From an uncultured archaeon (GTDB lineage: Archaea > Asgardarchaeota > Lokiarchaeia > Sigyniarchaeales > SOKP01): DNA of 35,149 nucleotides. Each line of letters begins with the position of its first letter. Within the stretch, counting starts at the first letter, position 1. The translations under genes and the position numbers were made by a program. Positions 14,679-23,404 of this stretch are shown here, in pieces. The DNA lies in NCBI GenBank assembly GCA_964508365.1, contig CAZDTP010000032.1, positions 9,344 to 44,492 of the forward strand, written 5' to 3'. Under the pieces are notes generated by a model, which worked only from the letters and a program-made list of their open reading frames with translations, did not search any database and was not told the origin of the DNA.

Positions 14679-16700
14679 TCAATTTTTTATCTCATGTATA
14701 AGATCCAGATTATTACGTAAAATTTTAGAACAAGAATAAATTTGGTCAATATTTTCTCTCAATTCTCTATTCGTATATTTTACATATTTGGGTAAATCAA
14801 ATTGAGGATGGAAGTATTTAAACTTAATATGTGGTAACAAATTAGCAGATTTCAATAATTTATTTAGTTCAATAGCCCCCTCAGAACGCATATATAATTG
14901 GTAAACTAATGAATTAGATAGTCTAATGTAAAATTCTAGTAGGTTACCGATATTTTTTGAGTTTATTTCATTTTTGAACGAGGTGTTTGATTCTTGCAGA
15001 AGAAAAAATACTAATTGGGATAAAAACTGGTTAATTCTACCTATTTTTGATAAAATTATAGGAAAACTTTCGGGCATCGGAAGTGTTCTTATAAAACTTC
15101 CGTTATATCTAAGGTATTTTCCTGACATATGTAATGTCCCGTACAACGAATTAAAAACTTGATTAAGGAAATCTGAATTCAGTATTGACAACAAACAAAA
15201 ATAATCGTCTGTTTTAAATGATGGTACATTCAAAAAATACAGACCGGTTAAATTAGCGAAAATTCCAGGATCGTATACACAAGTAATTTCTTTTGATATT
15301 TCTCTAAAAACTAACTTTTCACTTGAGAGTTTGCTCCATACTTCTTTGTATTCTGGTTGGTAACTAAAATAAGATATCTCTTCATTGACCTTGGCAATCT
15401 TTATTCGCTTATCAAAATTAATGAAATATTTACCTACATTTCCAGTTCCCAATAAAAGGAGATCTTTATCAGATGCCTTATGCTTATTCATATATTTAAA
15501 ATTTTCTGCCCATTTAATAAATCCAAATGGTCGGTATAGAATATTAAGGTCCTTTATTGCGTTTGATAAAGGTTTAAAGTTAGCATAAAGGTAATTAATT
15601 AAATTGGCATTAGAATTTAATGGGATTATAAACGAAGGCAAAGAATGGATTATACTTTGAGGAAATTTAATTAGTTCCTTGCTGTGAAGGTTTCTAAAAT
15701 CGATAATGGTGCCATAATTTTTAATCGCAATAGTATTTTTGGTGTTGATGTTTTTTTTGCAAGATAGAATTATGGGATAGGCTGCTGTGTTTTTAAAAAT
15801 TGGTAATGAAGATATATTTATTATTTCTTTAATCTCTGTAGTTCGCAATAATAATTCTCTTATTTTCAAGCCATATTCTGCTGATAGAAATTTATTGGTG
15901 GTTAGAAAGGAAAGACAACCAATTCCACTTTTTAGGATTTTTAAAGATTTTTCAATAAAAACTACACTTAAATCATATAATCTATAAGCGGACTCAAAAT
16001 TCTTTTTTATTTCTTTCTTAAATTCTTTATCACCAATTTTTTTATTTTCTACATAGGGGGGGTTACCAATGATTATATCAAAATTTTGGTCATCATACTC
16101 AATTAAATATTCCATATTAAACAAATTAAAGTTGAGATCTATACTATTAACAAAATCTTCAATTTCTCCTAATGTTGGATGAATTTCTTTATTTTCATTA
16201 AGCTTAATCTCGTTTTTCGAATAAATCCATTTTATTAACATTAATTTTGACATCAATATAGATGTTTTATCAATGTCAATTCCGAATATATGATTCTGAA
16301 TAATTTTTTTCTTAAGATCGAAAGAATTTTGTTCCGGTTCGCATATTTTATAAAAATTGAAAAGTAAATTGGCAGCAGCAATTAAAAACCTTCCAGTTCC
16401 GCAAGCAGGATCTAAAATTTTTATACACTTTAGCTTTGCTTTAAGCTTATTATTAAGATTTTTATGTTCTATAAAAAATTTTGAAAGGTTAAGTAAAGTA
16501 TTAAAATTTTCACCCGTATTTAATATTTCTGAAATATCGCTAACAAAGATTCTAAAAATATTTAATACCATTAGATCAGCAATCGGTTGAGGCGTATAAG
16601 TTACCCCACGATCGCGGTTCTTGATTTTTTCACCAATTCTTTTTTCTTCGAAACTCTTAATTACCGATTCTAAGGTAAATGTAGTGTTTTTAAATGACAA
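14679..16700 (-). CDS. N6-adenine DNA methyltransferase (gamma class, TaqI/Eco57I-like), apparently orphan
   Basis: GVTYTP, ILDPACGTGRFL (motif I), FGIDID, DIIIGNPPY (motif IV), C-terminal LVFRE...ILNS...LPMP TaqI_C-like recognition domain; no adjacent endonuclease gene. Confidence 0.9.
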   Translation of the reverse strand: MSFKNTTFTLESVIKSFEEKRIGEKIKNRDRGVTYTPQPIADLMVLNIFRIFVSDISEILNTGENFNTLLNLSKFFIEHKNLNNKLKAKLKCIKILDPACGTGRFLIAAANLLFNFYKICEPEQNSFDLKKKIIQNHIFGIDIDKTSILMSKLMLIKWIYSKNEIKLNENKEIHPTLGEIEDFVNSIDLNFNLFNMEYLIEYDDQNFDIIIGNPPYVENKKIGDKEFKKEIKKNFESAYRLYDLSVVFIEKSLKILKSGIGCLSFLTTNKFLSAEYGLKIRELLLRTTEIKEIINISSLPIFKNTAAYPIILSCKKNINTKNTIAIKNYGTIIDFRNLHSKELIKFPQSIIHSLPSFIIPLNSNANLINYLYANFKPLSNAIKDLNILYRPFGFIKWAENFKYMNKHKASDKDLLLLGTGNVGKYFINFDKRIKIAKVNEEISYFSYQPEYKEVWSKLSSEKLVFREISKEITCVYDPGIFANLTGLYFLNVPSFKTDDYFCLLSILNSDFLNQVFNSLYGTLHMSGKYLRYNGSFIRTLPMPESFPIILSKIGRINQFLSQLVFFLLQESNTSFKNEINSKNIGNLLEFYIRLSNSLVYQLYMRSEGAIELNKLLKSANLLPHIKFKYFHPQFDLPKYVKYTNRELRENIDQIYSCSKILRNNLDLIHEIKN

Positions 16701-16857: not shown

Positions 16858-17760
16858 GTGAAAATGATAGAAAAATCATTCTTAATTAAAATAATAGAAA
16901 ATCCATATTTAATAGCTAAATTAAATTTTAATCAACTTATTTTAGTTTTTCGTGAAGCAGTTAAGCTATTTAGAGAAGAAACTATGATATTGGAGTTAAA
17001 GAAAGAAAATCCACAAGATAATATACTTGTAATTGGAGACATCCACGGGGATTTGAAAAGTTTGATAAGATTGTTGGAAATAATCAGATTAGAGAACCCA
17101 AAATATGTTATCTTTTTAGGTGATATTGTTGATCGGGGTTTATATCAGTTAGAGTGTTTTATTTTAGTCCTAGCATTAAAAATTAAAGATTCTAAGAGAT
17201 ATTATCTTCTAAAGGGGAACCACGAAACTTTAGAAGCTAATAAGAATTATGGATTTTTTCAAGATTTTTTGAATCGGTTTGAGGATCCTAAGAAATTTAA
17301 CCAGATTTTAGCTATATACGACGCTCTTCCCTATTGTGCTTTAGTAAATGAATCCATATTATGTCTTCATGGAGGTATTCCAGAGGATTTTAATGCAATT
17401 AATAGATTAAGGGGTATTAAAACAATAGAAATTAACTTAATTTATGAAAACACAGCTAAAAGTCTGCTACAAATTTTATGGAACGACCCTAAACCCAATC
17501 TAAAAGGCTTTACAGAAAGTTTTAGAGGTAGAGATATAAAATTCTTTGGAGAGGATGTATTTACAGATTTTATGCAAGAAAACAAATTGGAATACTTGAT
17601 AAGGGCTCATGAAAGATTCCCTGACGGTTATAAGTGGTTTTTCAATAAACGATTGTTATCAATTTTTTCTTCTGCTAATTATCGAGGTATATTTACACCC
17701 ATTCCCGCATCATACGCAATTATTAGAAATAAAACTGTGATACCAAAGATTATTTCTTAA
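16858..17760 (+). CDS. Ser/Thr protein phosphatase, PPP family (PP1/PP2A-like metallophosphoesterase); start possibly ATG 16864
   Basis: GDIHG, GDIVDRG, GNHE, HGG, WNDP, IRAHE and FSSANY motifs. Confidence 0.93.
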   Translation: MKMIEKSFLIKIIENPYLIAKLNFNQLILVFREAVKLFREETMILELKKENPQDNILVIGDIHGDLKSLIRLLEIIRLENPKYVIFLGDIVDRGLYQLECFILVLALKIKDSKRYYLLKGNHETLEANKNYGFFQDFLNRFEDPKKFNQILAIYDALPYCALVNESILCLHGGIPEDFNAINRLRGIKTIEINLIYENTAKSLLQILWNDPKPNLKGFTESFRGRDIKFFGEDVFTDFMQENKLEYLIRAHERFPDGYKWFFNKRLLSIFSSANYRGIFTPIPASYAIIRNKTVIPKIIS

Positions 17761-17837
17761 TTATGTGAACAGATCGGGAAAATTTCTAATGAAATTAGAA
17801 TCTGAGGAGCTACTAATTTTCAATTTTTGCTCTCATT

Positions 17838-18092
17838 TTACATAATTTGAGAAGCATCTGGTTTTATAAAAAGCAAATTATTACCACGTATAAAAATTTC
17901 GTTGTATTTCGCCACAGGACTCCCATCCATGATTTCAGTTGCGTTCTCTAAAATCATATTCATGTAAGCATCGATTTCTTTTAATAAACCCTTATATTCC
18001 GTACCATCTTTTAATCTGAGCAAGATTTGACTGTTTTGAGCGTCTTGTAATATTTGTAAAGGGTTCCTATTTCTATTATTCTGATTTGGCAT
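17838..18092 (-). CDS. Sm/Lsm RNA-binding protein (SmAP2-like)
   Basis: Sm1 motif LRLKDGTEYKGLLKEIDAYMNMIL and Sm2 motif IFIRGNNLLFI; PVAKY segment recalled from crenarchaeal SmAP2. Confidence 0.93.
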   Translation of the reverse strand: MPNQNNRNRNPLQILQDAQNSQILLRLKDGTEYKGLLKEIDAYMNMILENATEIMDGSPVAKYNEIFIRGNNLLFIKPDASQIM

Positions 18093-18185
18093 TCTTTATC
18101 ACTTATCAAAAAAACATTTATATTATAATTATTGAAAAGATAATTTAAAGAAAAACTTTTTTCAATTAAAACCTTTCTAAGAATA

Positions 18186-18791
18186 TTGAACCCTCTAAGT
18201 AAAGATTCAGATAAAAAAAAAAAAAATATTGTCGCTAAGTATGATTCAACCTCAAGCTTCTATGATGATAGATATAGGAACATCCAGAATTCGAAATTCA
18301 CACTACTTCTAAGGGATTTTAAATTTGATAATAAAATCATATTGGATGCGGGTTGTGGAACTGGGCTTCTTTTTGAATTTTTCCTTAGATCTAATCAGCA
18401 AATCCATAATCGGAAACTAAGATATATCGGTTTAGATATTTCCTGGAAAATGTTGAAACAATTCTTATACAAGTTAAATAAGGTAAAAAATATCAAATAT
18501 GTGAATTTAATTTTAGGGGATATAGAAAATCTACCCTTTAGGGAGGAAACAATTCACCAAATTTTTGCGGTTACATCTTTGCAGAATTTGCATAATATTG
18601 AGAGAGGATTGAGAGAATTATTTCGAATTGGTCAACAAGGAACCTCATTAAATTTATCGATCTTGAGAAAAAATTTGAATTTTAATAAAATATTTTCGTG
18701 CCTAAAAACAGAAATCGTAGATTTAAATTTAATAAGGTTGGAAATGGTTGAAGATGTAATTATTCAGGGTAATCTTTTTAAAAAAAAATGA
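18186..18791 (+). CDS. Class I SAM-dependent methyltransferase
   Basis: ILDAGCGTG, GLDIS and GDIENLPF motifs. Confidence 0.88.
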   Translation: MNPLSKDSDKKKKNIVAKYDSTSSFYDDRYRNIQNSKFTLLLRDFKFDNKIILDAGCGTGLLFEFFLRSNQQIHNRKLRYIGLDISWKMLKQFLYKLNKVKNIKYVNLILGDIENLPFREETIHQIFAVTSLQNLHNIERGLRELFRIGQQGTSLNLSILRKNLNFNKIFSCLKTEIVDLNLIRLEMVEDVIIQGNLFKKK

Positions 18792-18793
18792 AC

Positions 18794-19681
18794 TTAATTC
18801 TTTTTTTTTTTTAATGATTGAATAATATCTAAAGGATTGCTTTCTATATTGTATTTTTTTTTAAAGAAATTACACACATTTCTTATATCTCTTTCTAAAA
18901 GCGAATTAGCATTTGGATGATCTGAGGGAACCCATTGTAACCAATCAATAATTAAGATATTATCTTTATTATCTACTACAATATTGAACTCTCCAAGATC
19001 TCCGTGTATCATTTTTGCTTTTTGATAAATAATTTTAACTTGCTTGATAATTTTGTTAAATAATTTAATTGGATTTTTTATATTGCTATGATAGGCTAAT
19101 TCTTTTCCTCTTAAGTAAGACATGATAATGATGTGTCTATTAAATCCAATTGGTTTGGGTGTATCTAATTTAAGTTCATAAATCATGCCTAATGCTTCAA
19201 ATTCTTTTTTAGCAGCAAGTCTATTTATATACAACCAAGATGCGTGTTTTCGATTTCCAAGGAAACTCCTTAGCTGTTTAATATTTTTAAAGCTAGTTCT
19301 CCCTATTCGATAAATTTTTAATGCGAAAATATTCCCATTATCATCCATACACCCATATACATCTGATTCTTTTCCTTTACCAATCAATGGTCCTAACTGT
19401 CCAATTGTCTCCTTTTTCACTAAAGTATGAAGAGCTAAAATATCATAACCAATTGAATTAAGAGTGTATGCTATTTCACTTTTAGACGAATCTCTTATTA
19501 TTAAATCTAATTTATGAACCTTTTTAAGGCGAAATAAAGTCTCTTCCATAGGATACCTTGAATAGAATTTAATGTTATTTATTGTAACAAATTCTGATCG
19601 TTTCATACCGATCTCAATTGCCATTAAAATTCTTAGGTCTTCCTTTTCCATATCAGGAAGAATTTTGGCTGCTTCGGTCAT
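18794..19681 (-). CDS. rio2: RIO2-type Ser/Thr kinase (winged helix plus RIO kinase domain)
   Basis: N-terminal EDLRILMAIEIGMKRSEFV wHTH; IGKGKESDVY, ALKIYRIG, HGDLGEFNI and IDW. Confidence 0.93.
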   Translation of the reverse strand: MTEAAKILPDMEKEDLRILMAIEIGMKRSEFVTINNIKFYSRYPMEETLFRLKKVHKLDLIIRDSSKSEIAYTLNSIGYDILALHTLVKKETIGQLGPLIGKGKESDVYGCMDDNGNIFALKIYRIGRTSFKNIKQLRSFLGNRKHASWLYINRLAAKKEFEALGMIYELKLDTPKPIGFNRHIIIMSYLRGKELAYHSNIKNPIKLFNKIIKQVKIIYQKAKMIHGDLGEFNIVVDNKDNILIIDWLQWVPSDHPNANSLLERDIRNVCNFFKKKYNIESNPLDIIQSLKKKKN

Positions 19682-19722
19682 TTTGTTTTGTCTTTATTTT
19701 GGCATTAGTTTAAGATCGTAAA

Positions 19723-20508
19723 TTAAAGAATAAATTTATGATAGACTTTAATGAAATTGATAAGTTCTGCAAGATTTGGTATTTCATATATAGCGATTCC
19801 AAAAACGATTATTACCAGAAATAATAGTATATCGCTTTGTTTAATATAGTAGATTGAAGCTGTTGATCCATCTTGAAATAAAAACAAGAATATTCCTTGT
19901 TGGAGATAGATAGCAATGCCACTAGAAACCACAAGTCCTATAATTGAATAAGTTATTATGTTGTATTCGATTTCGATGATTCCTATAGTTAGGATAATCG
20001 CAAATGATATTATTGTAAGGATTATAAAAAATAAGGAAATTGATAGCCAATTATCGTAAAATCCTGAACTTACTTCATAATTAAATCCCGTTTCTCTCCA
20101 AACTAGCGAAGTACTTAGATTTAAAAATGAAATAAGTGGAAAAATTAATGCAGGGAATGAAAAAATGAAATAAAGCCTTAAAGTAATAAATCTTGAAAAT
20201 TTATAGAATTCCTTTTTATCTTCTTGCTTAATTTCGCTCAACATTTTATCTAGTCTAATCTGAACATAATCTGGAACTTTTTCATTCAATACAGAGATTT
20301 GAAAATTGATATTGGGGTAATTGGAAATGAGGTTATTTAATAATTCGTATCCTTTTTTTAATCTTTCTTGAGAACTTTTTGGTCCGTTCCATACATAAAT
20401 AATATTGCGTTCCTCGTCCAAAAGTGCGCAAAGATCGTGATAAAGTAAACTTGATTGCTCTTCAATCCAATTTTTATTAGGTTCGTCGAAAATATATGTT
20501 TTGAGCAT
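19723..20508 (-). CDS. Gelsolin-like domain protein with about 4 C-terminal transmembrane helices
   Basis: N-terminal SLLYHDLCALLDEERNIIYVWNGPKSSQERLKKGYELL matches the gelsolin repeat core (D-x-x-x-L-D ... IYVWxGxxS); four long hydrophobic segments follow. Confidence 0.7.
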   Translation of the reverse strand: MLKTYIFDEPNKNWIEEQSSLLYHDLCALLDEERNIIYVWNGPKSSQERLKKGYELLNNLISNYPNINFQISVLNEKVPDYVQIRLDKMLSEIKQEDKKEFYKFSRFITLRLYFIFSFPALIFPLISFLNLSTSLVWRETGFNYEVSSGFYDNWLSISLFFIILTIISFAIILTIGIIEIEYNIITYSIIGLVVSSGIAIYLQQGIFLFLFQDGSTASIYYIKQSDILLFLVIIVFGIAIYEIPNLAELINFIKVYHKFIL

Positions 20509-20641
20509 AGATATTCAAATAATTTTAACTCTGAGTAATTTATATCTTTTTCTATATGGTTACATCATATTAAAGGAACAAAAAATTAAAAACAAATATT
20601 AAATAAAAGGACTAAAAATATGAGATGTAAATGATGTAAAA

Positions 20642-21541
20642 TTATTCATTTTCTATTCTTTTTTGAATCTGTTTCCAATGATCCTCAATATAACTCTGAT
20701 GTCTCTCAATATCTTCATTAGATATGCTTTTAAATCTTTTTTGAGTATTTAGATACTCTATGATAGGTTTCCGTTTTTGAGGATCTAAATATTTACTACT
20801 ATCTTTTGATAATTCAAATTTACCCTCAATTACTTCATAAAGGGGCCAAAAACCGGTTTGAACCGCTAATCTCCCAATCTCAATTGAATCTTTGGGATTA
20901 TATCCCCAACCTGGTGGGCATGGAGCAAGAATGTGAATATATTTTGGACCATTAATTTTCATAGCGTTTTTAAATTTCTCGTATAAATCAAGAGGGTAGG
21001 AAGAAATCGCTGTGGCTACATAAGGTATTCCATGTGCTTCTAAAATTTTAGGCATATTTTTCTTATATCCTGTTTTACCATTCGGAGTAGTAGTACTATA
21101 AGCACCAAGTGGGGTACTTCCACTCCTTTGGACTCCAGTATTCATATAAGCTTCATTATCGTAACAAGCGTAAATAAAATTCGTACCTCTTTCAACAGCT
21201 CCACTTAGACTCTGAATTCCGATATCTACGGTACCACCATCTCCTGCAAACGCAACTACGTTAACATCGTTAGCTAATCCTTTGTCTTCAAGTGAAGCAA
21301 CGATTCCCGACGCTGAAGCACCTGTAGTGGCAAATGGAGTATGAAGTACTGAAACTTTAGTAGTACAAAACCCTTGCATTCCATGTAGAACAGTTAAGCA
21401 CGATGCAGGAACAGTAATTATCGTCTTTGGTCCTAAAGCTTTTAGGGCAATTCTATAAATTAGTGCCATTGAACATCCCGCGCACGCTCTAGTACCAGGA
21501 TATATAAATTCCTCTTCAGGAATTTCCATTAGTTTAACCAT
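20642..21541 (-). CDS. porB: Pyruvate/2-oxoacid:ferredoxin oxidoreductase beta subunit (TPP-binding)
   Basis: GTRACAGC, AGDGGTVDIG, YDNEAYMNTGVQRS and HILAPCPPGW. Confidence 0.93.
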   Translation of the reverse strand: MVKLMEIPEEEFIYPGTRACAGCSMALIYRIALKALGPKTIITVPASCLTVLHGMQGFCTTKVSVLHTPFATTGASASGIVASLEDKGLANDVNVVAFAGDGGTVDIGIQSLSGAVERGTNFIYACYDNEAYMNTGVQRSGSTPLGAYSTTTPNGKTGYKKNMPKILEAHGIPYVATAISSYPLDLYEKFKNAMKINGPKYIHILAPCPPGWGYNPKDSIEIGRLAVQTGFWPLYEVIEGKFELSKDSSKYLDPQKRKPIIEYLNTQKRFKSISNEDIERHQSYIEDHWKQIQKRIENE

Positions 21542-21546
21542 TTTTT

Positions 21547-22842
21547 TTATCCTCCTTTAAAATAATCTGCTTCGTCATAATCACCAAGATTTTCTAATTT
21601 TAAACCGATAAAATCGGTTTCATGAGATATAATTCCTTTTTCTGATTCCTTAATTGCTTTGGTCACTCCTTGGATTATATGCTGATCAGTGACATCTCTA
21701 CCACCTAATCCTACTATAAAACCTTTAATAAACGGGCTTTGCTTTAAACCGTATAGAGCTGCCTTTAATTCGTACGATAAAACTCCTTCATAGCCGTAAC
21801 CAATATCCCTATCAAAAACTACTACGAGTTTCGTATCATTAAACAACTTTCTCAATTGCAAAGCGGGGAAAGGTCTGAATAATTTTAAACTAACTAAACC
21901 AACTTTTAATCCGTCTTTACGAAGTTTACTAATAATATTTCGGGCTTGAGAAGCAACTGACCCCATCGCGAATATTAGGACATCAGCGTCTTCAGTTAAA
22001 TAGGTTTTATAAATTCCATTTCCATAAGATCGTCCAAATTTCTCTGAAAATTCATCGTGAACATTCATTATGATTTCAATTGAATTTTCAAGAGCTTTTT
22101 GCATAGCATATCTATATTCAAAATATCCCGGAGCGATACCTTCTGACCCTCTATCTCTTAAATGAGGAGTAGTCACTGGATCAATCCCTTTTACTACAGA
22201 AACATCAGAAAGATTGTAATGATGTTCTAATGGAGGTAAGAAATTATCAATATCTTCTTGGTTCTCTATAGAAACTGGCATCATTGTATGAGATAATATA
22301 TAACCATCATAAGCCACGATCGCTGGAAGAAAAACCCGAGAATCTTCGGCTATCTTGAAAGCTTGTATGTTAGTATCGTAAATCTCTTGATTGTCCATAC
22401 AAAACATCTGAATCCAGCCGACATCGCGTATTGTTATAAAATCTTGATGATCTGTCCAAACAGACCATGGAGCACCAGTTGCTCTTGTTGCTAAGTTGAT
22501 TATAATCGGGAGTCTATTTCCAGAAGCCCACGGTAAAAGCTCATACATATACATCAAACCATGTGAAGAGGTTGCTGTACCCACTCTAGAACCTGTAGCG
22601 GAAGCCGCGCAACATACCGCGAGTGCGGAATGTTCTGATTCTACTTTAACGAATCTTGCTTTTAGTTTTCCTTCTGAAATAAATTCTGCGATTTTCTCCA
22701 CAACTGGACTCTGTGGAGTTATTGGATAAGCTGCTATAACTCCAACTTTCACTTGTCTAAGGGCGTGGGCTGCAGCATGATTCCCAGTCAAAATTTTTAT
22801 TTTTTTATCGCTTATTTCAGATTTTTTTTCTGTAATTGTCAC
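21547..22842 (-). CDS. porA: Pyruvate/2-oxoacid:ferredoxin oxidoreductase alpha subunit
   Basis: TGNHAAAHA, AYPITPQSP, ESEHSA, TATSSHG, DGYILSH, RPFP and GLGGRD; the GTG start overlaps the porD TGA stop. Confidence 0.93.
   Translation of the reverse strand: MTITEKKSEISDKKIKILTGNHAAAHALRQVKVGVIAAYPITPQSPVVEKIAEFISEGKLKARFVKVESEHSALAVCCAASATGSRVGTATSSHGLMYMYELLPWASGNRLPIIINLATRATGAPWSVWTDHQDFITIRDVGWIQMFCMDNQEIYDTNIQAFKIAEDSRVFLPAIVAYDGYILSHTMMPVSIENQEDIDNFLPPLEHHYNLSDVSVVKGIDPVTTPHLRDRGSEGIAPGYFEYRYAMQKALENSIEIIMNVHDEFSEKFGRSYGNGIYKTYLTEDADVLIFAMGSVASQARNIISKLRKDGLKVGLVSLKLFRPFPALQLRKLFNDTKLVVVFDRDIGYGYEGVLSYELKAALYGLKQSPFIKGFIVGLGGRDVTDQHIIQGVTKAIKESEKGIISHETDFIGLKLENLGDYDEADYFKGG
21551..21556 (-). 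promoter_or_regulatory. Shine-Dalgarno AGGAGG for porB, embedded in the last porA codons
   Basis: Minus strand reads AAAGGAGGATAAAAAAAATG; 9 nt spacing to the ATG. Confidence 0.6.
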
Positions 22843-23138
22843 TCAATTTTCACCTCTTCCATTGAAATTGCTTTTACAGGGCATTCCTCCTGGCAGATTC
22901 CGCATCCCTTACAAAATTCAAAATCTATTTCTGGAGGTATAGTTCTAGTTACTACTGCTTCTGGACAATACAACCAACAATTAAAACAACTAGGTTTTCC
23001 AGACTTTGCGGGAATGCATTTTTCTAGATCTATTATGGGTTTCTTAGGACTCCATGTTCCAGTTTTTCCAGCTTCTCCTTTAACAGGTTTTTGAACTGAT
23101 CCCAAGATTTTTTGATAATCTTTTTTCGTATCAACCAT
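22839..23138 (-). CDS. porD: 2-oxoacid:ferredoxin oxidoreductase delta subunit (2x[4Fe-4S])
   Basis: GKTGTW..KKPIID, C...CFNCWLYCPE and CKGCGICQEECP; I chose ATG 23138 over GTG 23150. Confidence 0.92.
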   Translation of the reverse strand: MVDTKKDYQKILGSVQKPVKGEAGKTGTWSPKKPIIDLEKCIPAKSGKPSCFNCWLYCPEAVVTRTIPPEIDFEFCKGCGICQEECPVKAISMEEVKIE

Positions 23139-23404
23139 GATATCACACAATTTAATGAATAATAACCGATATAAAAATTAGTATCTATTGTAATAAAACT
23201 CTTCCTATTAATAGAAATAGGGATTTACCTCAAATATTAAATAAAATATCATTTTTTCTTTTTTACGAGAAAGAAACTGAATATTTGATTCCTAATAATA
23301 AGAATTTAGAATTTTATCTTTTGGAAATCGAAAGAAATTTATATTCAACAATTTCATTATCTCTTTATAAAAACACCAATCATGAATAAATATCACATCT
23401 TTAG

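Follow-up and report, generated by a model that had tools for sequence, protein, structure and literature searches.

A gelsolin domain joined to a four-helix membrane module in a Lokiarchaeial order: a candidate link between actin and the membrane

A conserved gene downstream of porB

The window, i.e. the whole stretch of 35,149 nucleotides of Lokiarchaeial DNA that was analysed, carries on its reverse strand a gene for a protein in which a gelsolin domain is followed by a basic tether, a four-helix bundle and an outer sheet (Table 1). Retranslation of its open reading frame yielded a 261-aa product with no internal stop, identical to that given by an earlier reading of the DNA made without database searches (here termed the sequence-only reading). 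A word-indexed search retrieved 116 homologues with 40-91% identity, nearly all of 259-263 aa, which are without exception derived from Lokiarchaeota/Promethearchaeota metagenomes and are unnamed or annotated as 'hypothetical'. Because the homologues are this numerous, span this range of identity and are constant in length, the gene is, as judged from sequence conservation, real and conserved. Further full-length relatives, of 270-320 aa and with 22-30% identity, came from an exhaustive HMMER search of 1.84 billion representatives, and the alignment of 36 members was shown to contain 17 invariant columns, located in both halves of the protein. One database entry, HUW90146.1 (P0193, in the same 90% cluster as P0001), was deposited under a 'Candidatus Nanopelagicaceae bacterium' MAG, and its source is almost certainly a mis-binned Lokiarchaeial contig.

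The membrane-gelsolin gene is separated by 133 nt from the preceding porB and by 41 nt from the Rio2-type kinase gene that follows, within a region (positions 16858-23150) that encompasses porD-porA-porB, the membrane gelsolin, the Rio2 kinase, a SAM methyltransferase, an Sm-like protein and a PPP-family phosphatase. T-rich runs after the porB stop, together with a TATA-box-like element (Table 1), weakly suggest a promoter specific to this gene, in a region of 28% G+C. The gene order from porD to the phosphatase was observed to be conserved across the taxonomic family (membrane gelsolins at 36-49% identity), was partially retained in one genome of a neighbouring family and was not found in the cultured species. 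The arrangement is best read as inherited synteny without apparent functional logic, and a functional hint from the window neighbours was set aside on this basis. No actin, profilin or gelsolin gene was present in the neighbourhood. Linkage to an actin gene was likewise rejected: in several relatives one contig carries both genes at a distance of 17-58 kb, but in closed genomes they are far from each other. An Eco57I/MmeI-type methylase gene occurs nearby (14679-16700), and the cultured species likewise have such a gene beside their clade B members.

Several genes elsewhere in the same genome were also noted. A 376-aa protein (L007:1387-2517(+), contig C41) combines an N-terminal gelsolin-like domain with two C-terminal DNA-binding motifs of the HeH/LEM/SAP type (Ish1, E 1.4e-11; HeH; SAP), a domain combination that could link actin and chromatin. 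Two Lokiactin-type genes with 83% identity were identified (L008/L029:1498-2640(-) and L009:1474-2523(+)): the canonical one, which starts MAEEESFLNAK and hardly varies across the order, is truncated at a contig end; the other is complete and falls into a less common group of paralogues, with 84-90% identity in a few relatives. The gene beside the actin paralogue (L008:211-1458(-)) encodes a protein of 415 aa, which contains a helix-turn-helix of the TrmB type (E 9.5e-12) and an N-terminal domain of 170 aa without assignment. The genome's own 2DGel (L001:721-1737(-); 338 aa; Gelsolin, 93.8 bits) contains an LKDV motif and a C-terminal extension that ends in a zinc-ribbon-like CxxC...CxxC motif.

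Table 1. Features of the membrane-gelsolin gene, with positions in the window, and tandem gene pairs of clade D in related genomes
Feature	Positions	Strand	Remarks	Basis
TATA-box-like element	20537..20546	(-)	GATATAAATT; ~34 nt upstream of ATG	read directly
Whole CDS, 261 aa + stop	19723..20508	(-)	clade A (short form) of the membrane-gelsolin family	
Gelsolin-fold domain, predicted cytoplasmic, aa 1-94	20227..20508	(-)		Pfam, alignment, AF2, Foldseek, VIA, profile
Basic juxtamembrane linker, aa 95-106	20191..20226	(-)		AF2, K+R count
Membrane helix 1, aa 107-136	20101..20190	(-)		hydropathy, AF2
Outer loop 1 with beta-hairpin, aa 137-147	20068..20100	(-)	W137 invariant	alignment, AF2
Membrane helix 2, aa 148-179	19972..20067	(-)	W154 invariant	alignment, AF2
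Membrane helix 3, aa 182-203	19900..19965	(-)	G197, Y201, L202 conserved	AF2, conservation
Outer loop 2, aa 204-223	19840..19899	(-)	with strand 219-223	alignment, AF2
Membrane helix 4, aa 224-261	19726..19839	(-)	D226, F230	alignment, AF2
Tandem clade D/AIPS-like loci			L027, L028, L089, L091-L096, L098-L100, L104-L108	

Gelsolin domain and membrane module

Structure prediction with AF2 on the whole protein, using 36 homologues, gave a pLDDT of 88.2, and the N-terminal domain was predicted to comprise five strands (2-8, 13-16, 26-31, 36-41 and 70-73), a long helix (47-62) and a further helix (80-94), in keeping with the gelsolin fold, in which a long and a short helix enclose a mixed sheet. 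When aa 1-110 were scanned alone, Pfam PF00626 (Gelsolin) matched residues 19-65 with 21.7 bits (E 1.8e-4; curated cut-off 21 bits), and the score of the whole 261-aa protein was 19.5 bits, under the cut-off; relatives from clades B and C scored 12-14 bits or gave no match, and an NCBIfam scan of the protein returned none. Searches with phmmer against PDB sequences retrieved villin (E 1.9e-5), gelsolin and CapG, and the profile of the membrane-gelsolin family retrieved Thor ProGel (E 5.7e-5). Foldseek placed aa 1-94 closest to the chain of Thor ProGel bound to actin (7c2f_B; E 3.6e-5, TM 0.70, 87/88 residues), with a probability of 1.00 for more than 40 gelsolin-family chains; the remaining matches listed were exclusively chains of gelsolin, villin, severin, adseverin, CapG and Asgard 2DGel. 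VIA gave Z values of 9.5-10.4 (rmsd 2.5-2.9 A over 84-92 residues), the best matches being gelsolin G2, adseverin A4 and ProGel (Z 10.3-10.4, rmsd 2.5-2.7 A), and no Sec23/24 chain was among the Foldseek or VIA matches listed.

The DWG motif, regarded as the mark that separates gelsolins from cofilins (Akil et al., PMC7444086), is represented by D31, W40 and G42, which are invariant in the 36 clade A sequences; across 34 sequences of the wider family, G42 remains invariant and D31 is retained in 26. According to the predicted model, aa 1-94 is a gelsolin domain. The sequence-only reading had noted a resemblance to the gelsolin repeat core and proposed a check of the fold; Pfam, phmmer, the family profile, Foldseek and VIA agree on this resemblance beyond chance, and the two structural methods returned gelsolin-family chains only among the matches listed.

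The four hydrophobic segments described in that reading (approximately aa 110-129, 154-178, 184-202 and 227-241) coincide with Kyte-Doolittle peaks and with the AF2 helices at 107-136, 148-179, 182-203 and 224-260. Predicted separately from 41 sequences, the membrane module (residues 101-261) reached a pLDDT of 94.5 and a pTM of 0.87 and was shown to form an antiparallel, up-down-up-down four-helix bundle, in which the two outer loops build a three-stranded sheet; in the whole-protein model, the linker that precedes it falls below a pLDDT of 50 at aa 96-100. Invariant E179 ends helix 2 at the cytoplasmic turn, and helix 4 runs into a conserved amphipathic cytoplasmic end (P244, N245, F252 and Y256). 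Lys and Arg residues average 5.4 before helix 1 (aa 85-106) and 3.3 after helix 4, compared with 0.8 and 0.9 in the outer loops. Since the N-terminus is polar and not hydrophobic, a signal peptide is absent, as had been stated earlier. Based on this charge distribution and on the presence of a folded N-terminal domain without a signal peptide, both termini and the gelsolin domain are predicted to be cytoplasmic, in agreement with the placement proposed from the letters alone.

Mean pairwise identity was 48% for the membrane module and 51% for the gelsolin domain, and 24 module positions are at least 90% identical, including the polar residues E179, Y201, Q212 and D226, located within the bilayer or close to it. 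Conservation across the whole protein peaks in the motif G-I-F-L-F-L-F-Q (205-212), which is located in outer loop 2 and faces outwards. Given conservation on a par with that of the gelsolin domain, the module probably has a function of its own, beyond acting as a passive anchor, and the anchor role assigned to it in the sequence-only reading falls short, as this degree of conservation exceeds the needs of a tether. In the searches run, the module resembles no known family: Pfam and NCBIfam gave no match, which was considered with respect to the four-pass families claudin/PMP22, MARVEL, tetraspanin, connexin and PRA1, a VIA-wide structural search yielded nothing beyond four-helix bundles of a generic or de novo kind (Z up to 14.5), and ESM-atlas searches by shape and by features returned only its own family or cluster and weak rows (connexin rows, TM 0.34). 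A claudin-like fold, in which four helices are likewise combined with an outer sheet, was considered and dropped, as structure searches gave no support; the PRA1 and Claudin_3 profiles matched relatives only at E >3.

These properties bear on a reading in which the gelsolin fold has acquired a second use, as a cap that docks partners to, or regulates, a membrane module with the main job, e.g. as an oligomeric channel, as a scaffold or as a receptor for an extracellular factor, without a link to actin or lipid synthesis and comparable in this respect with the gelsolin-like domain of Sec23/24. The reading is rather doubtful. It would account for the strict conservation of the module, including its polar positions and the outward-facing motif, and for the finding that module and domain never occur apart (see below). 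Furthermore, the family's own conserved polar set in the gelsolin domain (W14, E16/17, H24, D25 and K44) includes a polar cluster, E16/17, H24, D25 and K44, that lies outside the canonical actin-binding helix face. However, neither structure nor sequence connects the module to any channel, transporter or receptor family; its best matches are generic bundles, its atlas matches are weak, and the absence of Sec23/24 chains from the structural matches listed weighs in the same direction.

Distribution of the family and the clade D gene pair

When 399 genomes of the phylum were searched with the wider-family profile, full-length matches were confined to the window's own Lokiarchaeial order, where 133 of the 152 other genomes carried a match (116/134, 1/1, 12/13 and 4/4 in its families); outside the order, the same search gave weak matches of gelsolin-domain size only. 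The fusion for which a search across Asgard genomes had been proposed was thus found, in this single order only. A profile of the module, run over 267 genomes of the phylum, matched no stand-alone module, and the exhaustive representative search revealed no other fusions, only full-length proteins or fragments, the longest of 384 aa. Because the module profile matches solely open reading frames of 257-328 aa of the same order, the module and this type of gelsolin domain are, across the genomes searched, always together. Exact look-up identified the members of Lokiarchaeum ossiferum (NEF87_002464, UYP46179.1), Promethearchaeum syntrophicum (DSAG12_00505, QEE14692.1) and Harpocratesius (K9W44_05135).

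A maximum-likelihood tree of 68 members resolved four clades. Clade A (support 100/97) represents the short form and includes the window protein, the only clade found in the window's genome. Its sister (98/90), clade B (100/99), is a long form with a cytoplasmic tail, [KR]P[ST]ILRDK, and contains both cultured species; clade C (100/98) is a long form with a P-I-S-W-K-E-W tail, and clade D is split from the other clades with support of 99/89; L. ossiferum also has members of clades C and D. The clade B tail, absent from the window protein, reads more fully [KR]P[ST]ILRDK..V.LKEIE (P0187:248-283, P0189:249-286 and 11 more), and its T-I-L-R-D-K resembles the WH2-like T-L-L-K-D-V of the own genome's 2DGel. 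For a WH2 assignment of this tail, Pfam and a search of the tail profile against the PDB gave no match, and the resemblance is without statistical support.

The clade D gene was found directly upstream of a gene for a CDP-alcohol phosphatidyltransferase, the best model of which is archaetidylinositol phosphate synthase (AIPS; NF040950, 111-136 bits, under the equivalog cut-off of 180 bits; also PF01066). Among the 23 loci examined, 22 of which carry a clade D gene (L103 does not), 17 from five genera have both genes in the same orientation, either separated by 11-33 nt or with 17 nt in common (Table 1). In three loci from two other families (L024, L090 and L097) the genes are adjacent on opposite strands, 365-450 nt apart, in one further locus they are separated by 1.2 kb, and in two, one of which is L103, no enzyme gene was detected. 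The pair is operon-like and points to a link with lipids, and it represents the only functional association found for any member of the family.

A lipid-linked role, in the metabolism of membrane lipid head groups, would place the gelsolin domain over the cytoplasmic membrane surface, where the protein could act as a partner or regulator of the AIPS-like enzyme, or could sense or bind the anionic, inositol-phosphate-type lipid made by that enzyme; direct binding of actin would not be required. We regard this role as possible, although somewhat doubtful. Besides the gene pair, it is favoured by the net basic charge of the long helix in all four clades, which is highest in clade D (+4.5). Conversely, the gene link is limited to clade D, and the clade A gene of the window lies between porB and the Rio2 kinase gene. 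The own genome contains the orthologous AIPS-like gene (L109:1489-2127(-)) with its other neighbours; only the clade D gene is missing, and cleanly so. Furthermore, the basic positions of the helix vary between clades, and an inositol-type head group is a tentative assignment for the enzyme, because it is one of four AIPS-like paralogues in that genome and scores under the equivalog cut-off. Since eukaryotic gelsolins are themselves controlled by phosphoinositides, which is also a point for the lipid-linked role, links to lipids and to actin are not mutually exclusive. The expression of PIP-synthesis genes by L. ossiferum (L. ossiferum preprint) speaks for both the lipid-linked role and this compatibility.

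Actin binding and relation to known systems

To explore the actin-binding potential of the long helix, a comparison set was drawn from genomes of the same order, with 28 distinct gelsolins that are soluble and consist of a single domain. These share the pattern R48-x-K50-F51-[IMLV]52-A-A-x-x-A-P-x-I60-R61-D62, in which R48, K50, F51, [IMLV]52, R61 and D62 are each present in all 28 (100%). The membrane family has E/K/T, L/F, K/R/E, K, V/I and S at positions 48, 50, 51, 52, 61 and 62, respectively, and the conserved long-helix surface of ProGel/1DGelX-type gelsolins is absent. Positions 48, 51, 55, 58 and 59, assigned to the exposed face by helical periodicity and not by coordinates, are of high entropy (2.5-2.7 bits at 48, 55, 58 and 59) and mostly charged, and the counterpart of gelsolin I103 is a charged residue (E/K/R) in 75% of sequences. 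The type-2 Ca2+ site, composed of an Asp at the start of strand 3 and a Glu at the start of the long helix, is incomplete: D25 is kept in 35 of 36 sequences, and the Glu position (49), set by alignment to the E of the own genome's 2DGel, is K20/R14/S2 in clade A, i.e. Lys or Arg in 94%. The domain resembles the soluble gelsolins of its own genome in the strand core only (hhalign probability 24-48%).

Because the helix positions conserved in soluble relatives are charged or variable and the Ca2+-ligand Glu is replaced by Lys or Arg, a canonical actin grip is unlikely on the basis of the alignments. In its strong version, the sequence-only reading had envisaged a gelsolin-G1/ProGel-type capper, severer or nucleator of actin fixed in the membrane. 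The closest solved structure, ProGel bound to actin, and the retention of the DWG motif and D25 are in its favour, but with the hydrophobic helix positions and the R/K/F/I/R/D set missing, this version is very improbable. That reading had itself named a degenerate actin-binding helix across orthologues as evidence against it, and such degeneration was found at the five exposed positions; capping, nucleating or anchoring actin in the known way is not supported. Binding of actin through another surface is possible, judging from the helix composition. Every Asgard gelsolin-domain protein assayed so far binds actin (PMC7444086; L. ossiferum preprint).

The most likely role, put forward tentatively, is that of an actin-membrane adaptor with a non-canonical interface. 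The gelsolin domain, held by its 12-residue basic tether at the cytoplasmic face of the bundle, would dock the Lokiactin cytoskeleton to the membrane without the gelsolin-G1/ProGel grip, in which the hydrophobic helix face is inserted into the actin cleft. Docking would occur through another, probably electrostatic, surface, because the long helix is net basic (+2.9) in an acidic domain (net -2.2) and the N-terminus of Lokiactin is acidic. The conserved membrane and outer parts may hold the link in position or connect it to a partner within or outside the membrane, and the calcium switch of true gelsolins has probably been replaced by a fixed pair of Asp25 and Lys/Arg49. The adaptor role is favoured by the gelsolin fold, by the actin binding of the Asgard gelsolin-domain proteins assayed, by the 2DGel-like tail motif of clade B and by the retention of the family in cultured species that form actin-filled protrusions; the altered helix face, the restriction of similarity with soluble gelsolins to the strand core, the whole-protein Pfam score under the cut-off, the conservation of the module beyond the need of a tether, the lack of actin, profilin and gelsolin genes nearby and the position of clade D genes beside a lipid synthase gene rather than a cytoskeletal one are points against it.

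A broader proposal, in which the four-clade family couples inositol-type lipid synthesis or signalling to membrane actin, with clade D working with the AIPS-like enzyme and clades A and B attaching Lokiactin filaments in the protrusions of cultured Lokiarchaea, is unlikely. If true, the family would be a prokaryotic forerunner of the phosphoinositide-gelsolin control of cortical actin.

Actin-filled, moving protrusions are the most eukaryote-like trait of Asgard archaea. To our knowledge, the mode by which actin filaments are attached to the membrane in these organisms is not known, and the Asgard actin regulators investigated to date are soluble proteins. A protein that is integral to the membrane and has a genuine gelsolin fold represents a concrete, cloneable candidate for this attachment, and the conservation of the family across the order that holds both cultured Lokiarchaea makes each of the readings testable. 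If actin is not bound, the gelsolin fold already had a second, membrane-bound use in archaea, and the operon-like link of clade D to an inositol-lipid-type synthase provides a second lead.

The membrane-gelsolin architecture is new: no description of a membrane or transmembrane gelsolin in Asgard archaea was found in the literature searched, and a search by accession and locus tag gave no mention of NEF87_002464, DSAG12_00505 or K9W44_05135. The statement in the sequence-only reading that no characterised example was known is borne out within this literature. The published gelsolin inventory of L. ossiferum lists soluble proteins only, and the published Lokiactin pull-down is acknowledged to be biased against membrane proteins (L. 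ossiferum preprint). In the proteome tables of the preprint, which use GNAMCCOK identifiers, the nearest candidates for UYP46179.1 were ambiguous, one having the wrong mass.

Among known systems, Thor ProGel (7C2F chain B; Akil et al. 2020, PMC7444086) is the best match by both structure and profile (VIA Z 10.3, rmsd 2.5 A over 84 residues, 20% identity). Like ProGel, the N-terminal domain is of Asgard archaeal origin, spans ~90 aa and forms a single domain of the gelsolin/cofilin type, and the two share the DWG core and an N-Y-P turn after the long helix. However, ProGel is a free soluble protein, whereas the membrane family adds a four-helix membrane module; ProGel has L-M at positions 51-52, where the membrane family has K/R/E and K, and a K in place of D25. 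The same fold and core motif are found in Asgard 2DGel and in eukaryotic gelsolin and villin (7C2G, 7WHG, 1RGI and 9JUS), with a VIA Z of ~10 against gelsolin G2 and adseverin A4, and the conserved D25 matches gelsolin D66/D187, the Asp of the type-2 Ca2+ site. Those proteins consist of two to six repeats with a WH2-like linker and a Ca2+-ligand Glu at the start of the helix, whereas the membrane family has one repeat, K/R in place of the Glu, a charged equivalent of I103 and an integral membrane part. The gelsolin-like domain of Sec23/Sec24 (COPII), unlike that of the membrane family, lies within a large soluble multi-domain coat protein. Possible functional analogues are ERM proteins, talin and supervillin, which provide membrane-fixed actin sites, often tuned by phosphoinositides; supervillin is a tightly membrane-bound member of the gelsolin family. 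These proteins are peripheral and recruited by lipids or receptors, and they are not homologous in architecture to the membrane gelsolin, which is, according to the model, an integral four-pass protein and a candidate actin binder.
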